Below are positions 3,939-54,036 of a DNA stretch of 64,000 bases, piece after piece. The stretch lies in the IMG/VR virus record IMGVR_UViG_3300045988_023906. One strand, given 5' to 3'. The position numbers and the translations under genes were made by a program. The notes beneath the pieces were generated by a model. That model ran no database searches and had not been told where the DNA came from. It saw only the letters and a list, made by a program, of their open reading frames with translations. Source of the stretch: a virus. Numbering within the stretch: the first letter of the stretch is position 1; every line of letters starts with the position of its first letter.

Positions 3939-4130
3939 ATGTTCACTAAGAATCAAATAGAAGAAATTAGAGACAAATTGGCTCAGTTGGGAGTCAAGGA
4001 TACAGAGTTTAAGGTAACAGAAGAAGCATCTGAAGATGATATGATAGCCATTGTCTCAGGTGGTGAGAATAAGATAATCCTGTTGAAAGACCTATTGAGT
4101 GAAGCAGCAGGTACTATTATTATCGAGTAA
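3939..4130 (+). CDS. hypothetical small acidic protein (fibre-cluster)
   Basis: 63-aa ORF. Its TAA stop runs directly into the A19 tract. Confidence 0.4.
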   Translation: MFTKNQIEEIRDKLAQLGVKDTEFKVTEEASEDDMIAIVSGGENKIILLKDLLSEAAGTIIIE

Positions 4131-4147
4131 AAAAAAAAAAAAAAAAA
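4129..4147 (+). repeat. poly(A)19 homopolymer between a TAA stop and the next ATG
   Basis: Counted directly: A run 4129-4147, then GA, then ATG at 4150. Confidence 0.95.
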
Positions 4148-4149
4148 GA

Positions 4150-5856
4150 ATGAAGATTGTTAATTCAATTATGCCAATGAGTGATGTAAAGGCATTAGCA
4201 GCAAGCGGACAAAAATTAAGAGTAGCAGTAACAAAAACTTCCGCACAAGGTAGGGATGCACAAAGTACTACACCCAATTTAATGTCTTTCAGTATTGATG
4301 AAAGCAGTGTGTGGTTTAATGGAAAGAAGTATGGGGTACATAAATTTAATAATGTTTCAAGCCTGAATACTAACTCAACAGCAGAACAGGTATTGTCTGC
4401 TTTGAATGTCAGGGAATCTTCTGAACTTTATGATTTAGCCCATAAAGGTGTACTTTTCATAGATACCATTTCTGGAAATACGATAGTAAAATATGAAGAT
4501 GGGGATGACACTTTCCAACTCTATGTACCAAGCTCAAATTTAGAGTCAATAGAGAGACTTACTATTAATGTATCTAGTAATAAAGTGGTAAAGTTGACCA
4601 CTACATCTCATTTAATGGTTGATGATATCAGGAATACTCTAACCTCTGCTGAGACTGCCAAGGTTCTTTCAGCCGCAATGGGCAAGAAGCTCCAGGATGA
4701 GAAGTTGGCTAAGACAGATGTGGTGAACAACCTAACTACGGATGAAGCTTCAAAAGCCTTATCAGCGGCACAGGGTAAAGCGTTGAATGACAAGTTTAAT
4801 GGGAACAAGATAAATATCAACTTCTCAGCTATTTCAGATTCAACAAATAATGCCACTATAAAAGGCTACATGGGGAACATAAATGGTGACACTCTTGTTA
4901 GTAAGCTTACTTATGGTGCAAATCTGGTTGACAGTAGTAGTAATGATTGGGTAATTACTTTGCAGGAGGTAAGTGATACAAAGGTATCATTTACAGGTAT
5001 TAAATTCACAGATTTTAACTTATGCAGTAAGAATGTATCAGTTACTATAAGTGGCGGTAATTATACAAATGTGACTGTTGCTCAGGATAATAGGCTTGTA
5101 CCTGCTATAAACAATACCTTAACTTCAACTAGTACTAGTGAGGCTCTTTCAGCAGCTCAAGGTAAAGTTCTTAATGACAGAATCTCAGGTTTGGGCAATG
5201 TGTATAGAGTGAGGGGTACTAAGACTAACTTATCTGATGTACTAGCCCTTACTGATGCAAAGGTTGGTGATGTTTGGAATGTGACTAATGCCTTTATTTT
5301 AGGTGATAAGCCATATCCTGCAAATACCAATGTTGTATGTATTACAGCAACTAGCTCATCTGACCACGATGGAGGAAATTGGGACCCGTTGGGAGGTACT
5401 GTTGATTTGAATTCTTATGTGCCTAAGAGTGATATAGTTGATAACCTATCAACTTCAGATTCAAAAAAGCCTCTCTCTGCTAAACAAGGACTTGCCCTTG
5501 CTGATATGATAACGAAATTAAAAGCTGATAAGGAGACCTATCAGCTTCCCAAAGCACTTGTAAGTGGCACACTATCCACTCAGAATGAAATAGATACTAT
5601 TCTAGGTTCCTATAGTAGCTTCAATGCCGCCCTTAATGCAGGTAAGGTAATACATGGAGTATATAAAGACAGCATCAACAGAATGAATACAGTAGCATTC
5701 TCAGCATTCAATGATACTACTAACAGTAGGGTTGAAATGTTTGCGATACTGAATAATTCTACCTTACTATATATACAGGCTACTTATAGTGGGGCTAGTT
5801 GGGTTAGTGCTACCACAAGGGAAGAGTCTTTTAATGCAAGCATCACTATAGAATAA
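4150..5856 (+). CDS. tail fibre protein
   Basis: Start moved to ATG 4150, because the track start 4099 reads through the A19 tract as KKKKKK. Four copies of an (A/P)LSA(A/K)xGxxLxD motif are present (LSAAMGKKLQDEK, LSAAQGKALNDKF, LSAAQGKVLNDRI, LSAKQGLALADMI). The composition is Ser/Thr/Asn-rich, as in fibres. Confidence 0.6.
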   Translation: MKIVNSIMPMSDVKALAASGQKLRVAVTKTSAQGRDAQSTTPNLMSFSIDESSVWFNGKKYGVHKFNNVSSLNTNSTAEQVLSALNVRESSELYDLAHKGVLFIDTISGNTIVKYEDGDDTFQLYVPSSNLESIERLTINVSSNKVVKLTTTSHLMVDDIRNTLTSAETAKVLSAAMGKKLQDEKLAKTDVVNNLTTDEASKALSAAQGKALNDKFNGNKININFSAISDSTNNATIKGYMGNINGDTLVSKLTYGANLVDSSSNDWVITLQEVSDTKVSFTGIKFTDFNLCSKNVSVTISGGNYTNVTVAQDNRLVPAINNTLTSTSTSEALSAAQGKVLNDRISGLGNVYRVRGTKTNLSDVLALTDAKVGDVWNVTNAFILGDKPYPANTNVVCITATSSSDHDGGNWDPLGGTVDLNSYVPKSDIVDNLSTSDSKKPLSAKQGLALADMITKLKADKETYQLPKALVSGTLSTQNEIDTILGSYSSFNAALNAGKVIHGVYKDSINRMNTVAFSAFNDTTNSRVEMFAILNNSTLLYIQATYSGASWVSATTREESFNASITIE

Positions 5857-5866
5857 AAAAAAAGTT

Positions 5867-7573
5867 ATGAGTGCAGAAGGTAAAGAGTTTAAAGTAAATG
5901 TATCTACCGACAGAGCTACTGCAATAAGTAGCTCTGCTGGCAGTTACCCTAATGTGTTGTATTTCCCTATAGATGATGATAATGTCATCATATTTAATGG
6001 GAACATATATGATTGGAATGCAAGTGTAACTTCCCCCAAGTTAATCTCCTCAGGAGACCTGAATACATATAGGGGAACTCAATATTTAGGTGTTTATTAT
6101 GCCAATTATGGCAATAGTATAAGTAATAAACCTTCTGGAGTATCACAGTTTGCATTACATGTGCTCTTGGAGAATAATGACTCTTCGACTATACAGGTAC
6201 TTTATTCAAAAAACAAGATATATACTAGAGCTTATGAGTCATCTTCTTGGTCTTCTTGGACTGAGATTGGTGCAGGAGGTGTAACTTCTATACCTCAAGC
6301 TTCTAGTTCAGCATTAGGAGGTATAAAGATAGGGTACTCTGATAATGGCAGGAATTATGCTGTAGAGTTGGATAGTTCTGGTAAGGCTTATGTTAATGTA
6401 CCATGGACAGATACAAATACAACATATAATGTTGCTACTGCTAGTGCCAATGGACTTATGAGTTCCAGTGATAAGTCCAAGCTTAATGGAATCCAAGCAG
6501 GTGCAGATGCTGTGTCATTCAGCAGGTCTTTGTCTTCAGGTACAAAGATAGGTACCATTAATATTAATGGTGTCAATACTGACATATATGCTCCAACAGC
6601 AGGAGAGCCAGTTAAATATGAAGTAGCTACCTCAACTACACTAGGATTGGTCAGGATTGGGTATCCTGAGAGTGGTAAGAATTATCCTGTTGAGCTTAAT
6701 TCCTCAAATCAGATGTATGTCAATGTCCCTTGGACTGACAATAACACAACTTACTCAGCAGGAGCTGGACTTAATTTATCAGGAACAGTTTTCTCCCTAA
6801 GGAAGGCAACACCTACTACACTAGGTGGTGTAAAGGTATCCAGCACTGAGATTAACACAATATCTACTGTTGCTGCTACTACTTTTGGTTTACAGAACAG
6901 AATATATCCTGTCCAGCTTGCTTATCCATCAGGTAGTGCAGGAACAGATGGTAATAAGGTACTTTCAGTGTATGTTCCTTGGGAGGATACTACTTATAGT
7001 GTAGTAAGTACCTCAAAGAATGGGTTAGTCAGTATGGATTCTGCATTGGCAGAGCTAGCCTACGAAGATAAGGATGCTGGTAACCTAGGTTCTCTTGCTA
7101 GATTTGGAGAGATGGGCATGTTGGAGGTTTCAACAATTATGGAAGATGACTTAGCTCTGGTTAATAAGAGTAATAGCTGGACAGCATATCAGGACTTTAA
7201 GTCAGGTGCTGGTAATTCAGGCTCTGATATGAGATTCAAAAGGGAAGTCACATGTATGCCTGATGTGCTGGACAATCTGATGTCATTAAATGTCATAAAG
7301 TATATATGGGAACACCCTGATGAAAATGGTATAAGATGCACTTTTGGTGTGAAAGCTGACCAGCTTCTGTCACTAGGTGGTGTATATGCTACTATGGTCC
7401 ACAGCAGAGCTGATAAATATGATACCAAGTGGGTAGAATATGATAGATTTGGTGTGCTGGCAATCAAGGCATTACAGGAGGTTGTAATGAGGAACAAGCA
7501 ACTGGAGAGCAGGATAGAATATCTTGAGGATACGATAAATTCTATGAGAAGAGTATGGGAAGAGAATTCATGA
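5867..7573 (+). CDS. tail fibre with three internal repeats and a C-terminal intramolecular-chaperone (peptidase S74-like) domain
   Basis: Three repeats of xxLGG(I/V)K(I/V)GY..(K/R)NY(A/P)VEL....YVNVPW(T/E)DT.TTY. The tail has SDMRFKREV....YDRFGVLAIKALQEV....LESRIEYLE, like the autocleaving endosialidase-type chaperone. Confidence 0.7.
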   Translation: MSAEGKEFKVNVSTDRATAISSSAGSYPNVLYFPIDDDNVIIFNGNIYDWNASVTSPKLISSGDLNTYRGTQYLGVYYANYGNSISNKPSGVSQFALHVLLENNDSSTIQVLYSKNKIYTRAYESSSWSSWTEIGAGGVTSIPQASSSALGGIKIGYSDNGRNYAVELDSSGKAYVNVPWTDTNTTYNVATASANGLMSSSDKSKLNGIQAGADAVSFSRSLSSGTKIGTININGVNTDIYAPTAGEPVKYEVATSTTLGLVRIGYPESGKNYPVELNSSNQMYVNVPWTDNNTTYSAGAGLNLSGTVFSLRKATPTTLGGVKVSSTEINTISTVAATTFGLQNRIYPVQLAYPSGSAGTDGNKVLSVYVPWEDTTYSVVSTSKNGLVSMDSALAELAYEDKDAGNLGSLARFGEMGMLEVSTIMEDDLALVNKSNSWTAYQDFKSGAGNSGSDMRFKREVTCMPDVLDNLMSLNVIKYIWEHPDENGIRCTFGVKADQLLSLGGVYATMVHSRADKYDTKWVEYDRFGVLAIKALQEVVMRNKQLESRIEYLEDTINSMRRVWEENS

Positions 7574-8385
7574 CACAAATAAAGGCAGTAAAGAAGGTAG
7601 GAGGTTTCCTACCTTCTGCTACAAAACGATTTTGTACAGCCTCTTGGCTTGCAGGCCATTCTGGTATATTTGATACCAACTCCCTACAAGGGTATGAAGC
7701 AAAAGACTTTGTGAGTGAAATGCATATAAAGCCTGCTATAGTAACAACTAAATATGAAATAACAATTCCTGAGGTGAGGGTTTCTTTTGGATTTGAAAGT
7801 GGCACTCCTCAAAGATTTACATATCTTAGTGACTCTGACCAATTATCACAGACTAAGGCAGTCTTATGTGCAGTACCTGTTGATGGTGGTCAGATTTCTT
7901 CAAGTGTATATACTCCTACTAATGGTGGTAGAGATGACAATTATGGTGTACAGTATATGCTATTCTCAGGCATGAAAATATCTGTTGTTGCAGGCACCTC
8001 ACTAGCTAAGTTATACATAGTATTGTATAATGACCAAAATACCATGGTTCAGTATAATAACAAGAGCATTACCAATCTTATGTCAGGTAACAACATATAT
8101 AAGCTGGCTAATGCTACTATGAGAAATAGTTCTGTTTACAGTAGCCTGTTTAATGGTGCAAATTACACAAAGACACAAGCAGTAGGTGATTCTAATGGTA
8201 ATGCTACTAATTCTGTGTGGTGTGCTATGCTTCCATTGACAGATGATGGAAAATCTAATGGGAGTTATTCAGTAGGTTCAAGCATGGAGACACCTCCCAC
8301 TAATGTCAATTCTAACCAGCAACTGTACAACTTCAAGGGTTCTATAGTTTACAACAAATTAAGTTCATTTACTCCAACTACATAG
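7570..8385 (+). CDS. hypothetical virion/fibre-associated protein
   Basis: ATGA overlap with the previous stop, so the start is moved from 7555 to 7570 (MTQIKAVKK). Ser/Thr/Asn/Gly-rich. No motif recognised. Confidence 0.45.
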   Translation: MTQIKAVKKVGGFLPSATKRFCTASWLAGHSGIFDTNSLQGYEAKDFVSEMHIKPAIVTTKYEITIPEVRVSFGFESGTPQRFTYLSDSDQLSQTKAVLCAVPVDGGQISSSVYTPTNGGRDDNYGVQYMLFSGMKISVVAGTSLAKLYIVLYNDQNTMVQYNNKSITNLMSGNNIYKLANATMRNSSVYSSLFNGANYTKTQAVGDSNGNATNSVWCAMLPLTDDGKSNGSYSVGSSMETPPTNVNSNQQLYNFKGSIVYNKLSSFTPTT

Positions 8386-10111: not shown

Positions 10112-12208
10112 ATGGCAACAGCAATTATAGGTACATTAAAGCATCTTCCTAAGGCATCAATACTGCCTACTTTACCAGAGACAGGTAGACCTAACAGGAT
10201 ATATTTTATCCCCAATGAAGACCCTACAGAAGATAATAGGTATAATGAATATCTATGGGTAAAGGATGAGACTTATCCTGATGGCCATTGGGAGCTTGTT
10301 GGTCCTGCCACAATAGACCTGACTGATTATGCCACTAAGGAAGAGGTAAGTGATTTGGAAGACTCCATAGGTGAGCAAATAAAGAAGTATTTGCCCTTAT
10401 CAGGAGGTACAATGGATAAGGGCAGCAACATATCCTTCCCATCAGATAGTGGGAGTACTGTGTATAATGGTTCTGGAATATCAGTGGGTGGCAAAGCCAG
10501 TACTGACATCCTACATGCAGCAGGAGGCACTACTAAAATCAAGACCTTGAATGGAGAATCTATGTTAGGAGAAGGTAATATTGTAATAGACCCTTCAAGT
10601 GTTCCAGTATCTTTAAGCTGGTATAATAGGACTAGCAGTCAGCAGGATGCCACAATAAACCTGACAATTGGAGATACCACAGTAAACCTATTCCCTAATA
10701 TATTCAAATTATTTAAGGCTGGTAAAGTTTCCACTTCCGAGTCCCTTAGTATAGAACTTACTGCTAATCCTGGGGTAAGTGGGACACCACAAGTTCCTAC
10801 CTCATTATGCCAGTGGAGCATACCTTTGGCTGACAGTAATACCGCAGGTATTATATCAAGTGAGGATAAGGCTAAGTTAGATAACCTATCTGACCCAAAG
10901 AATTTGCTAGCTTATGGTGTGGAATGGGATTCTACCAACAGTAGCCCTGTACTTACTAGAATAGGTAACATGAGCCTGCATAAGTCTCTCCCAATACAAT
11001 CAGCATTAAGAGGATGTGTATGCCAAGGTAAAAGGATAATGTATTATTTGGACCCAAATGACTGGTCTAAGAAAGCAGATGGTACAGATTCCAGATTGGA
11101 TGGATATGATGGTACTGTACAGGTAGAAGTACCTGAATTTTATTTGTGGTCTGAAACGGAAGGAACCAAATCCAGAGTATATGTGTCTACCCAAAAAGTA
11201 GTTTCTTATGCTATAAGGATTCCTCATATGTTGGTAGATGCTTATAGGAGTACTGTACTTAATGAAGTGCCTGAGGATATGGGCTATTTATCTACACTTC
11301 AAGTAAATAGTGCTATTTCAGTTGTAAATACCTCTTCTTATTGTAGAGGAGGAAATAATAGCTCTAGCAGTGATACCTACTTGGAATCGGATAAATTCAG
11401 GACTAGTTTAGGAAAACCTAGAACAAACACTAGTAGGGCAAACTTCAGAACTTATGCCAAAAATGCTGGCAAGATGTTGCTTACTTATGAGTACTACAAA
11501 TCAATATTCTATTGGTTGTATGTTATAGAATATGCAAACTTCAATAGTCAGGCAAACTATGTTGAAGATTTGACTGAAGATGGATATAGACAGGGAGGGC
11601 TTGGCAATGGAGTTACTACTTGGAGTGATGCTGTTTGGAATACTTATAATGGCAGATGCCCAATAACTCCATGTGGGTATTGTAATGAGTTTGGTAACTT
11701 TACTGGAATTAAGGACTTGGTAATTCCTGCTTCAGATGGTATCAGTACCGTAACTTTCAAAGTACCAAGGTGGAGAGGATTTGATAATGTGTTTGGAGAT
11801 ATTTGGACTAATCTGGATGGTATCCTAATAGATACTTCTGTCAGTGCCAGTAAGTCCACACCAAACTATGTGTATATTATAAATGACCCTGATAAGTTCA
11901 CTGATACTTTGTCAGATGCACCTACCAATGCGGATAGAGTAGTAGTATCAGGACATACAGGAGGGTATATTACAAAGTGGGCATTAGGGGAGTATGCAGA
12001 TATAATACCTGTTAGTGTTGGTGGTTCTGCAACTACTTATATGTGTGACTGTTACTGGGTAGATTCTGATAATACTCAGAATACACTACTGGTTGGTGGC
12101 CGGGCTCATTATGGTTCTAATGCTGGCTTGGCTTACTTCTTTTCTGCTCATGGTTCGGGTTATGTTTCTGCCCATGTCGGCTTTAGGTGCTTAACACTGA
12201 TAAGCTGA
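10112..12208 (+). CDS. receptor-binding tail fibre; DGR target protein with C-terminal variable region
   Basis: 698 aa. It has fibre-type motifs (NTAGIISSEDKAKLDNL). The last 36 codons form the VR of a VR/TR pair. The C-terminus ...YWVDSDNTQNTLLVGGRAHYGSNAGLAYFFSAHGSGYVSAHVGFRCL is compatible with a C-type-lectin/FGE-like DGR scaffold. Confidence 0.8.
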   Translation: MATAIIGTLKHLPKASILPTLPETGRPNRIYFIPNEDPTEDNRYNEYLWVKDETYPDGHWELVGPATIDLTDYATKEEVSDLEDSIGEQIKKYLPLSGGTMDKGSNISFPSDSGSTVYNGSGISVGGKASTDILHAAGGTTKIKTLNGESMLGEGNIVIDPSSVPVSLSWYNRTSSQQDATINLTIGDTTVNLFPNIFKLFKAGKVSTSESLSIELTANPGVSGTPQVPTSLCQWSIPLADSNTAGIISSEDKAKLDNLSDPKNLLAYGVEWDSTNSSPVLTRIGNMSLHKSLPIQSALRGCVCQGKRIMYYLDPNDWSKKADGTDSRLDGYDGTVQVEVPEFYLWSETEGTKSRVYVSTQKVVSYAIRIPHMLVDAYRSTVLNEVPEDMGYLSTLQVNSAISVVNTSSYCRGGNNSSSSDTYLESDKFRTSLGKPRTNTSRANFRTYAKNAGKMLLTYEYYKSIFYWLYVIEYANFNSQANYVEDLTEDGYRQGGLGNGVTTWSDAVWNTYNGRCPITPCGYCNEFGNFTGIKDLVIPASDGISTVTFKVPRWRGFDNVFGDIWTNLDGILIDTSVSASKSTPNYVYIINDPDKFTDTLSDAPTNADRVVVSGHTGGYITKWALGEYADIIPVSVGGSATTYMCDCYWVDSDNTQNTLLVGGRAHYGSNAGLAYFFSAHGSGYVSAHVGFRCLTLIS
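12084..12189 (+). other. DGR variable region (VR)
   Basis: 106-nt ungapped match to 12282-12387. All 26 mismatches fall at adenines of the downstream copy. Confidence 0.85.
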
Positions 12209-12281
12209 TTTGATAAAGAAAAGAAAATCATAGTTTTACTATGTAGGACATATATTATACGACTTGGTTAGTTCTAATTGT

Positions 12282-12387
12282 AAAAACTAGTTAGTAGCAA
12301 GGCTAATAATGGTTCTAATGCTAGCTTGGCTAACTTCAATTCTACTAATAGTTCAGGTAATGTTAATGCCAATATCAGCTTAAGGTA
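12282..12387 (+). other. DGR template region (TR)
   Basis: Non-coding copy of the VR located 198 nt downstream. It is A-rich (37 A in 106 nt). Read in the VR frame it has nine AAY codons and begins with a stop, so it is not a coding duplicate. Confidence 0.85.
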
Positions 12388-12513
12388 TTTTTTTTTTGTT
12401 TTCTCTTTAAATTTTATATGTGATATATGTTCCTTGCCTCTAGGCAAAAGATAAATAGTTTAAAAAGTACTAGTAAGAGTTGCTGAAAGTGCTTAATATG
12501 AAACACCTAAATT

Positions 12514-12930
12514 ATGGTTAAAAGAAAAGGAAATTTGATTTTATCCCTATGCAGGATGGATAATATTCTCTTGGCAGATACAAATGCTAGGAAAGCTAAA
12601 AGGAGGAGTAGAAGATTTATAGAAAAACATGATAAGAATATTATAGAAGAGGATAGAAACTACCCTAGAAGGCATGAAGATGATGGTTTCATGGATGTGT
12701 TTGATTCTAGAAGCAATAGGTTTGGTGACAGGTTCAGAGACTCTGGCATGAGAGGAAATGACATGGACAGAATAATAAAGTACATGAGACATTCCATGAA
12801 TGATGGAGAACACTTTACTGAATCTGAAGCTATGGATTTGGTATCTAATATGAGGGTGGCAGAAAGTATAGTGGAGAAAAGTTTGATATACATAAGGCAA
12901 AGGAAATTTGTGAAAGGTATAGAGGAGTGA
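12514..12930 (+). CDS. 138-aa ORF; first ~45 aa resemble the N-terminus of DGR-type reverse transcriptases (probable RT remnant)
   Basis: VKRKGNLILSLCRMDNILLADTNARKAKRRSRRFIEKHDKNIIEE fits the KR..NL...I...NLL.A...ARKGKR pattern of DGR RT N-termini, recalled from memory. The remaining ~90 aa show no RT motifs. An antisense ORF (12547..12945) is equally open. Confidence 0.4.
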   Translation: MVKRKGNLILSLCRMDNILLADTNARKAKRRSRRFIEKHDKNIIEEDRNYPRRHEDDGFMDVFDSRSNRFGDRFRDSGMRGNDMDRIIKYMRHSMNDGEHFTESEAMDLVSNMRVAESIVEKSLIYIRQRKFVKGIEE

Positions 12931-13124
12931 TTCCTGTGTCTGCAACTCCTACTGATGTGTATGTGGCAATCAACTCACAGTATCATGATTATGTTGAGCT
13001 GTTTAAGAGTTGGTTTGGTGATAATGTAGACCAAAAGATAATAGAATCTGCTATTATATTCTGGTTCAAAGATGTGGATTGCAAAGCCGAAAACAAGGTA
13101 GTAGAATATCTTGGAGAATACTAA
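12927..13124 (+). CDS. hypothetical small protein
   Basis: 65-aa ORF overlapping the previous stop and followed by a strong terminator. Confidence 0.35.
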   Translation: MIPVSATPTDVYVAINSQYHDYVELFKSWFGDNVDQKIIESAIIFWFKDVDCKAENKVVEYLGEY

Positions 13125-13130
13125 TAAGAT

Positions 13131-13163
13131 AAGGGTAAGAGGTAATCTTACCCTTTCTTTTTG
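13131..13163 (+). terminator. intrinsic terminator
   Basis: aagggtaaga-ggtaa-tcttaccctt gives a 10-bp perfect stem, followed by tctttttg. Confidence 0.75.
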
Positions 13164-13215
13164 TCCATATTGCAAGTATTTTTATATGCTACTAATAAGT
13201 GTTTTATTTACTATC

Positions 13216-13248
13216 TTGCAGATATGCAAAACTTTACTTACCTTTGCA
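13216..13248 (+). promoter_or_regulatory. Bacteroidota-type promoter (CTTG-N20-TACCTTTGCA)
   Basis: TTG at 13216-18 and TACCTTTG at 13239-46. The 18-nt block ACTTTACTTACCTTTGCA is nearly identical to 27285-27302. It lies 32 nt upstream of ATG 13278. Confidence 0.65.
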
Positions 13249-13277
13249 CTGTTTTAAGAACAAAAAGGTAGAAGAGT

Positions 13278-14444: not shown

Positions 14445-14531
14445 GCTATGTTTAAGTCTGGTATTTACTTATGGAGAAATAAAATTACTAATGGTTTTAT
14501 AAAAATAATTTATAATTTTTAATATTTTTTG

Positions 14532-16046
14532 ATGATGGCTGGAAAATTAGGTAAGTTTCAAATGGTAGGCTTCCAACACTGGAAGGGCCTTACTAAGGAA
14601 AACCACCTTGGTTCTATCTTTCAGTTAGCTCCACAGAAGGCTACAAACCTAATGGTACAACTGCTGGCCTTCTATAGAGGAAAGACACTTGACACATTCC
14701 TAAATCAATTCCCAACAAGAGAGTTTGAGGATGATAATGAATACTACTGGGATGTTATTGGTTCTTCAAGGAGAAACATTCCTCTTGTAGAGGCAAGAGA
14801 TGAAAATGGTACTGTTGTTACAGATGCCAGTGGTATGATTGGAGTAGGCACTGCTCCCTTCTATTTGGTATTCCCTGAGGATTGGTTTGCTGATGGTGAA
14901 TACATTGTAGGTAATCTGAATGAAATCTATCAGTTCAGAATACTTGGAGACCCAAGAATGGAGGGTACTAATGCAGTGTATAAGGTAGAGCTTGCTGGTG
15001 GTAACACAGCAGGTGTTCCTGCTGAAAGATTGCTTGCAGGTGAGAGATTCTCAGTTGAAGCTGCATTTGTTGAGAAGGAACTTTCAAGAAAGGTTGGTGA
15101 TGTAAGATTTACAAGCCCTGTTTCTATGAGAAATGAGTGGTCTGTAGTAAGAATCCAACACAAGGTTCCAGGTTCTATGTTGAACAAGAAGCTGGCTGTA
15201 GGTATTCCTATTGTTAAGGAAACTGAGGGTAGATATACTAAGTCAGTTGCTACAATGTGGATGCACAATGTAGATTGGGAAGTAGAACAGCAATTCTCTG
15301 AGTACAAGAACAATGCACTTGCATTTGGTAGAAGCAACAGAAATGCCAATGGTGAGTACATGAACTTTGGTAAGTCTGGTAATGTTATTAAGACAGGTGC
15401 TGCTCTGTTTGAGCAGATGGAAGTTGCTAATACTGTGTATTACAACACATTCAGCTTGAAGCTTCTTGAAGATGCTCTATATGAGCTTTCTGCTTCTAAG
15501 TTAGACTTTGGAGACAGATACTTCTTGATTAAGACTGGTGAGAGAGGTGCTATCCAATTCCACAAGGAAGTACTAAAGACAGTATCAGGTTGGACACAAT
15601 TTGTTCTTGACAACAGCTCTATTGGTGTTATTCAAAAGACTCAATCTAAGTTGCACCAAAACTCATTGAGTGCTGGTTTCCAATTTGTTGAGTATAAGGC
15701 TCCTAATGGTGTTAGAGTTAAGATTGATGTAGACCCATTCTATGATGACCCAGTAAGAAACAAGATACTTCATCCAAATGGAGGTGTTGCATTCTCTTAC
15801 AGATATGATATTATGTACATTGGTACTATGGACCAACCTAATATCTTTAAGTGTAAGATTAAGGGTGACAATGAGTACAGAGGTTATCAATGGGGTCTAA
15901 GAAACCCATTCACAGGTCAAAAGGGTAATCCTTACATGTCATTTGATGAGGATTCTGCTGTAATTCACAGAATGGCTACTCTTGGTATCTGTGTTCTTGA
16001 CCCAACAAGAACTATGTCACTAATCCCTGCAATTCTACAGGGCTAA
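14532..16046 (+). CDS. major capsid protein (crAss-like, HK97-fold class)
   Basis: About 504 aa from ATG 14532 (the track start 14529 is TTG). Size, position after the scaffold-like gene, the strong terminator downstream and my recollection of crAss-like MCP N-termini (..EFEDDNEYYWDV..) support the call. Confidence 0.75.
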   Translation: MMAGKLGKFQMVGFQHWKGLTKENHLGSIFQLAPQKATNLMVQLLAFYRGKTLDTFLNQFPTREFEDDNEYYWDVIGSSRRNIPLVEARDENGTVVTDASGMIGVGTAPFYLVFPEDWFADGEYIVGNLNEIYQFRILGDPRMEGTNAVYKVELAGGNTAGVPAERLLAGERFSVEAAFVEKELSRKVGDVRFTSPVSMRNEWSVVRIQHKVPGSMLNKKLAVGIPIVKETEGRYTKSVATMWMHNVDWEVEQQFSEYKNNALAFGRSNRNANGEYMNFGKSGNVIKTGAALFEQMEVANTVYYNTFSLKLLEDALYELSASKLDFGDRYFLIKTGERGAIQFHKEVLKTVSGWTQFVLDNSSIGVIQKTQSKLHQNSLSAGFQFVEYKAPNGVRVKIDVDPFYDDPVRNKILHPNGGVAFSYRYDIMYIGTMDQPNIFKCKIKGDNEYRGYQWGLRNPFTGQKGNPYMSFDEDSAVIHRMATLGICVLDPTRTMSLIPAILQG

Positions 16047-54002: not shown

Positions 54003-54036
54003 AGCAAAGATAAATATAATAGGAAAGAGAATCAAG
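54003..54036 (-). promoter_or_regulatory. Bacteroidota-type promoter (CTTG-N20-TATCTTTGCT) in front of the HNH gene
   Basis: The reverse complement reads CTTGattctctttcctattatattTATCTTTGCT, 23 nt upstream of ATG 53982. Confidence 0.55.

Follow-up and report, generated by a model that had tools for sequence, protein, structure and literature searches.

How does a DGR that has kept both its variable repeat (VR) and its template repeat (TR) come to stand without a reverse transcriptase (RT)? The question is raised by positions 12388–13124 of a 64,000-nt stretch of viral DNA (the window), in which a first-pass annotation, made from the sequence alone, had noticed a VR/TR pair at the end of a tail-fibre gene, no avd and, next to the TR, only an RT-like stub of about 45 codons. 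Two explanations had been offered: that the RT core was deleted recently and the VR frozen as a result, or that an RT encoded elsewhere serves the cassette in trans. The locus is very probably an inactive remnant of an avd-less target-VR-TR-RT DGR in a Kahnovirus-like (Steigviridae) crAss-like phage. In this gut phage the fibre tip is frozen since the RT was removed by one 4.7-kb deletion.

The cassette and its arrangement in relatives

Among named records Kahnovirus oralis cr85_1 comes closest, with ~89% nucleotide identity over the aligned parts (41% of the window; cr85_1 was covered in part), and genes neighbouring the locus match crass-specific Pfam families. The VR/TR pair, the spacer, a 138-aa ORF, an antisense ORF and a terminator were all found where the first-pass annotation had placed them. 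The features of the locus are as follows.

10112..12208, + strand: DGR target gene, encoding a 698-aa tail-fibre protein with the VR at its C-terminus (ORF list)
12088..12188, + strand: VR, now frozen; 101 nt at the 3′ end of the fibre ORF
12286..12386, + strand: TR, a relic; direct repeat of the VR, 78% identical
12387..12513, + strand: TR-to-RT spacer, presumed 3′ part of the DGR RNA (similarity to relatives' spacers)
12514..12657, + strand: 5′ remnant of the RT gene, codons 1–48, without fingers, palm and thumb (143 of 144 nt matching the RT gene start; L152–L159)
12514..12930, + strand: chimeric 138-aa ORF, made of RT stub, DUF7841 middle and out-of-frame tail (ORF list)
12648..12657, + strand: deletion junction, at which one copy of the 10-nt direct repeat AGAGGATAGA is left (flank comparison with L155 and L159)
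12648..13124, + strand: remnant of the DUF7841 gene, without its first ~47 codons and with a 10-nt frameshifting deletion at 12850/12851
13131..13155, + strand: intrinsic-terminator-like hairpin that ends the unit, a 10-bp stem followed by a T run

VR and TR differ at 22 positions, all 22 at TR adenines (22 of the 32 TR adenines are changed), and comparison of the window VR with the consensus TR of relatives gave 22 adenine-site mismatches and no non-adenine mismatch. The TR lies ~77 nt from the fibre stop codon and is separated from the 138-aa ORF by a spacer of 126–127 nt. The fibre gene is 95–97% identical across 17 close relatives, with the variable columns concentrated in the VR, and the 90%-identity cluster of the fibre protein contains 1,910 distinct sequences. 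No domain from Pfam or NCBIfam was found in the fibre protein; the C-terminal position of the VR was seen directly. Homology between VR and TR stops at AGGT, after which the VR is followed only by short AT-rich inverted repeats, and no GC-rich IMH of the BPP-1 type was evident downstream of the VR.

The parental arrangement is preserved in relatives. The gene order in L154, L155 and L159 is fibre (698 aa), a 305-nt interval, RT (338 aa), accessory genes, DUF7841 (208 aa), scaffold and major capsid protein, and the syntenic comparison that the first-pass annotation had proposed thus places an intact 338-aa RT between the fibre and scaffold genes. The 305-nt interval from fibre stop to RT start, comprising gap, TR and spacer, has the same length in the RT-intact relatives. 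Eight accessory genes lie between the RT and DUF7841, encoding in order 34, 135, 100 (HTH_17), 197 (GIY-YIG), 113, 259, 166 and 126 aa. Relatives that keep the intact layout are ~98.5% identical to the window on the fibre-to-RT side.

The absence of avd had been regarded as an anomaly, with no room for the gene in the short gap. This view was not upheld, as the RT-intact relatives share the ~77-nt gap between fibre stop and TR, none of the eight genes downstream of their RT matched an Avd family, and lineage-3 DGRs (PMC5758913), that of crAssphage LMMB among them (PMC7290462), lack avd. Judged by gene order, the target-VR-TR-RT arrangement without avd appears to be that of the 'lineage 3' architecture (Wu et al. 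2018).

Reverse transcriptase stub and deletion junction

The likeness of the first 45 residues of the 138-aa ORF to an RT, which the first-pass annotation had pointed out, is not due to chance, with 44 of 45 residues identical to the N-terminus of an intact 338-aa RT of close relatives (P0018) and 143 of 144 nt identical to the start of its gene. This protein was found by a protein-collection search using the frame-corrected RT of L019, to which it is 99% identical; L019 is an IMG/VR relative, 91.6% identical to the window over 12000–12657, in which the start of the stub runs into a long RT frame. P0018 represents a cluster of 201 member sequences, and at least 17 contigs are on record for it. 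A tblastn search with residues 1–46 also matched the starts of RT genes in cr7_1 (E 1e-3) and in crAssphage LMMB, where the matched gene is annotated as a 431-aa reverse transcriptase. The stub alone (46 residues) is too short for profile comparison and had no match in Pfam or NCBIfam, so its identity was taken from the intact relative.

P0018 matches Pfam RVT_1 over residues 75–253 (E 1.5e-16), a region that is absent as a whole from the window. Its best match among solved structures is a 328-aa 'Reverse transcriptase', 8ub7_A (E 3e-40), and the alignment runs from end to end (residues 2–324 against 2–315). The database entry says only 'Reverse transcriptase'; we take it to be the DGR RT of Bordetella phage BPP-1. 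The motifs PIGNYLSQ (IGxxxSQ) and YADD can be read from the sequence of P0018, and the stub contains neither. The earlier remark that no RT motifs follow the stub was therefore correct, since the RVT_1 region (75–253) and the YADD box have been deleted. Near-identity to a protein with RVT_1, YADD and PIGNYLSQ indicates that the stub is a true RT N-terminus without the whole polymerase domain.

In L155 and L159, AGAGGATAGA occurs at 10135 (RT codons 45–48) and again at 14859 (DUF7841 codons ~46–49), 4,724 bp apart. The window follows the flank of the left copy upstream of the repeat and that of the right copy downstream, being 98.5% identical to L159 up to 10144 and then 96% identical from 14859 on. 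As the flanks match L159 on both sides, the window allele arose by loss of the 4,724 bp that separate the two 10-nt direct repeats, in which RT codons ~49–338, all eight accessory genes and the first ~47 codons of DUF7841 were lost.

From 12648 the window is collinear with gp_24225 of cr85_1, a 208-aa hypothetical protein encoded just upstream of the scaffold gene, and the two frames, when joined, match Pfam DUF7841 (PF25223; E 9.8e-36; 122.9 bits, gathering score 25.2). The stretch at 12648–13124 is thus the remnant of DUF7841 and not a decayed RT. An RT concealed by an intron or by recoded stop codons was considered and rejected, because the sequence past codon 48 is collinear with DUF7841 in relatives. 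A second lesion lies at 12850/12851, where 10 nt (TGTATCACAC) are missing that are present in relatives, including L153 and L158, which are 99.2–99.3% identical to the window in the DUF7841 stretch. The 138-aa ORF, for which a profile check had been advised, has an RT part, identified through P0018, and a later part that is DUF7841: it consists of RT codons 1 to ~48, DUF7841 codons ~47–118 and an out-of-frame tail of 24 codons. As encoded, the DUF7841 gene of the window is a pseudogene, because it is both truncated and frameshifted, and the chimeric ORF is probably non-functional. The 132-aa antisense ORF (12547–12945) is present, as had been reported; its reading as a sign of relaxed constraint did not hold, since the intact DUF7841 gene of L020 is overlain at the corresponding position by an antisense ORF as well, a shorter one of 85 aa.

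The history of the locus is very probably as follows. The ancestor carried the fibre gene with its VR, ~77 nt, the TR, a 126-nt spacer, a 338-aa RT, eight small accessory genes (a GIY-YIG endonuclease and an HTH protein are among the products), then the 208-aa DUF7841 gene and the scaffold gene. One illegitimate-recombination event joined the two copies of AGAGGATAGA in RT codons 45–48 and DUF7841 codons ~46–49, removing 4,724 bp and fusing the start of the RT in frame to the middle of DUF7841, and a second, 10-nt deletion then broke the DUF7841 frame. Without a polymerase domain no cDNA can be made from the TR RNA, so that the VR stays fixed at the sequence last written, and TR, spacer and stub would now be neutral relics.

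The TR had been described as still pristine. It has in fact two private substitutions relative to a TR that is identical in seven of eight RT-intact relatives. The spacer of the window differs from those of RT-intact relatives by 1–5 nt, is partly alignable in more distant relatives with an intact RT, and contains a small hairpin at 12434–12447 (inverted repeat TTGCCT/AGGCAA). As the fold energy of the TR and spacer RNA was no better than that of shuffled sequence (z = +1.26), the role of the spacer is one that we only infer. Private substitutions in the window (two in the TR, one in the spacer and one in the stub) fall where active cassettes are almost invariant and are weakly consistent with relaxed constraint, four changes in 371 nt of TR, spacer and stub being about the background divergence of the lineage.

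An assembly or sequencing artefact, in which an intact RT of the true genome was collapsed by the assembler, has to be weighed at this point, as VR/TR repeats and strain mixtures can mislead assemblers and many different deletion alleles exist at this locus among relatives. Contigs of five sample accessions (ERZ27274391, JGI 3300014949, SRR2155317, SRR2155337 and ERZ28600661; ENA, JGI and Logan) nevertheless agreed exactly in fibre gene, VR, TR and junction, and the same junction, 10-nt deletion and VR recur in these independently built assemblies. The exact chimeric protein is on record in JGI, ENA and Logan assemblies, with three of the contigs being full-length genomes of ~98.4 kb, and six contigs are on record for the chimeric ORF and six for this very fibre protein. 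The junction also sits in unique sequence, outside the VR/TR repeat. An artefact is on this evidence extremely improbable, and assembly error was rejected because of the identity of the allele across the five accessions. Exact-pattern scans of IMG/VR gave no match to a 26-mer of the TR and one unrelated chance match (L072) to a 22-mer of the junction; by these scans the window allele is absent from IMG/VR.

VR variation and other sources of reverse transcriptase

The VR was identical in all contigs with the deletion allele in a contig-level comparison. These contigs represent only two near-identical sub-strains, and several may stem from a single cohort, perhaps from one individual, which makes the span over which the VR was seen unchanged a short one. 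In the RT-intact form of the phage the VR changes readily. Eight RT-intact contigs with an identical RT protein had eight different VRs (7–19 differences), with 21 of the 25 variable VR columns at TR adenines and a TR that was identical in seven of the eight. Two contigs from one study (L153 and L157; ENA OLSS22-1, SAMEA7000298 and SAMEA7000296) showed no differences in 1,976 nt of fibre gene, TR and spacer and 15 in the VR, which shows directly that the DGR turns over fast where the RT is intact.

The two sub-strains of the window allele differ by seven SNPs across ~20 kb that includes the fibre region, none of them in the VR. All seven (5213, 5730, 5734, 6281, 6573, 7082 and 8134) are nonsynonymous and located in three adjacent tail/fibre genes (4099–8385). 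The pattern suggests positive selection acting on receptor-binding genes other than the DGR target, which remains fixed. One more mismatch, at 54014, was seen in a second compared stretch of ~13 kb.

A further group of genomes has no TR (L001, L007, L015 and L020). Its members share one common deletion junction and have nearly the same VR (2–6 differences), with differences divided evenly between adenine sites (four) and non-adenine sites (four), as ordinary mutation after freezing would produce. In the window the deletion is recent, since its VR departs from the consensus TR at adenines only, and the VR bears no positive sign of prolonged decay. A recent deletion would explain the lack of non-adenine mismatches, but a cassette still being serviced could show it as well.

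Such service could come from a co-infecting RT-intact relative, whose RT (or the cDNA of its TR) would act in trans on a non-autonomous cassette. Trans action is possible in principle, as tropism switching was restored in a BPP-1 mutant lacking avd, TR and brt by trans supply from a plasmid (PMC3240598). RT-intact relatives that are 98.5% identical on the fibre-to-RT side do circulate, their spacers are only 1–5 nt different, and the window itself retains TR, spacer and a VR with adenine-site mismatches only (22, against no non-adenine mismatch). Against this, the VR is the same in every allele contig and in both sub-strains despite seven amino-acid changes in other tail genes, whereas RT-intact relatives alter the VR at zero background divergence. 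The TR of the window has two private substitutions where active cassettes are invariant, and none of the allele-bearing samples is among the eight places listed of the at least 17 at which P0018 is recorded. Service by a co-infecting relative is considered unlikely, and it is similarly improbable that the RT-less cassette is a natural non-autonomous DGR with a TR-spacer RNA gene and a VR that are still competent, occasionally re-diversified in trans during co-infection in the way that a SINE depends on a LINE.

The RT-deleted BPP-1 mutant (2011, PMC3240598) resembles the window phage in lacking an RT and keeping its VR, and the VR of the mutant was competent. That trans system was, however, engineered with a plasmid donor (PMC3240598), and the window phage shows no sign of trans service. 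A host-encoded cognate RT was rejected as a likely trans source, as no RT in GTDB species-representative genomes was more than 52% identical to P0018.

The remaining source would be a functional RT elsewhere in the same phage genome that acts on the window TR. DGRs are able to act on distant targets (PMC5758913), and 15.8 kb of the ~98.4-kb genome was covered by synteny only. The scan for an RT in the rest of the genome, which the first-pass annotation had recommended, found only the stub: tblastn searches with the RTs of LMMB and L018 over the 64-kb window and ~10 kb beyond each end, together ~84% of the genome, matched nothing else, and no RVT_1 match is on record for the genes called within 10 kb beyond each window end. 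For the remaining 15.8 kb, which was judged by synteny with relatives, no RT was present in the equivalent replication/tRNA module in 79 loci; these came from a scan of metagenome contigs for a cr85_1 protein encoded midway through the gap and are a synteny proxy, the best being ~90% identical and none from the same strain. The covered parts of cr85_1 contained only an RT fragment, at the same locus. The frozen VR also counts against a second RT, and such an RT is a very remote prospect.

Of the two explanations offered at the outset, recent loss of the RT core with freezing of the VR is the one supported by the parental layout, the 10-nt junction and the identical VRs. Service in trans, possible in principle (PMC3240598), is unsupported by the contig-level comparison of VRs and is unlikely, rare events being possible. 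An RT-deleted lineage with a fixed VR beside near-identical RT-intact relatives with a changing VR forms a clean natural pair, in which one could measure how fast the DGR turns over and how its loss affects fitness. For annotation, the locus is a caution that a perfect adenine-specific VR/TR pair is no proof of an active DGR.

Known cassettes and erosion of the locus

Orphan DGR cassettes had been thought undescribed in crAss-like phages. This is not the case, as cassettes with truncated RT genes were reported in 2020 (PMC7290462) and also in the Epsilon group (PMC11054128). Among 91 genus-I alpha-crAss genomes, Morozova et al. 2020 found complete cassettes in 16% and incomplete ones, with truncated fibre and RT genes, in 73% (PMC7290462). 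RT genes are fragmented or deleted in Epsilon crAss-like phages, and the cassettes of Alpha, Delta and Zeta are complete or incomplete (PMC11054128); 'silent and functional' cassettes are contrasted in PMC12386605.

The cassettes of genus-I alpha (Carjivirus) and Epsilon phages resemble that of the window in having a fibre target with VR, a TR and an RT and in lacking avd. Most of their genomes have a truncated RT, with or without a TR, and the surrounding region is highly variable. The window phage differs in probably belonging to another family, being Steigviridae-like (Kahnovirus), and in that the exact lesion, the parental genome and the comparison of frozen with active VRs could be resolved for it. 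In crAssphage LMMB (MT006214) the order is likewise fibre-VR-TR-RT, recorded as TG-VR-TR-RT without avd (PMC7290462). The RT N-terminus of LMMB is 48.8% identical to the window stub over 41 residues (tblastn), but its cassette is complete with an intact 431-aa RT, whereas the window keeps 45–48 codons. The DGR of BPP-1 shares with the window adenine-specific transfer from TR to VR into a receptor-binding tail fibre. Unlike BPP-1, the window and its relatives have no Avd and a TR downstream of the target and directly upstream of the RT, and in the window the RT itself is absent.

The DGR remnant extends the pattern of eroded cassettes to what appears to be a Steigviridae (Kahnovirus-like) lineage. 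The lineage may be new for this phenomenon, as Steigviridae is absent from the groups in PMC7290462 and PMC11054128, but the phenomenon itself is known. The significance is therefore modest, a known erosion pattern being carried to one more crAss-like lineage.

Erosion of the locus is widespread among relatives. Relative to L159, the 14 informative IMG/VR relatives and cr85_1 have lost between one and five pieces each from the region between fibre stop and scaffold start, in at least 12 different combinations, and no intact RT was present in any of these close relatives. Junction overlaps in this region ranged from 0 to 31 nt, and only the TR-less group shared a junction. The 5.8 kb from fibre stop to scaffold start (equivalent to window 12209–13277) form a deletion hotspot (L001, L006–L022 and L152–L158), and even RT-intact genomes are without some of the accessory genes. 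Three right-hand breakpoints were reused by independent deletions with different left-hand breakpoints: one at L159 ~15071, before CTGAGGGTGGCAG (L009 at ~9620, L013 at ~8211 and the 10-nt deletion of the window at 12850/12851), one at L159 ~15364, within the hairpin of the terminator (L015, L152), and one at L159 ~10427 (the TR-less group, and L011 at ~10428). Replication stalled by a hairpin, cutting by a nuclease (the region includes a GIY-YIG gene) and selection are possibilities.

In cr85_1 (L001, MT774390) an unannotated RT fragment (2098–2478; residues ~142–268) directly follows the fibre gene. Because only this fragment remains and the VR has no TR, cr85_1 also holds a dead DGR, on which its annotation is silent.

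Altered TRs were seen in three relatives. Nearly all adenines are lost from the 3′ half of the L019 TR (~8240–8300), together with several T-to-G changes, two adenines near the 3′ end of the L152 TR are changed, and AAT has become GGT in the L010 TR. These could reflect mis-targeted homing into the TR or mis-assembly of VR reads.

The RT frame of cr7_1 (L004, NC_055895; 5001–6239) contains several in-frame stops, and its annotated RT CDS starts ~280 nt past the true N-terminus, which suggests stop-codon recoding that conceals part of the gene from standard annotation. The major capsid gene of bajarodcaudo virus 1 from the rodent gut (L002, PQ006092; 6958–11045) is annotated as several segments separated by 'intron associated endonuclease' genes, whereas the capsid gene of the window (14529–16046) is uninterrupted.
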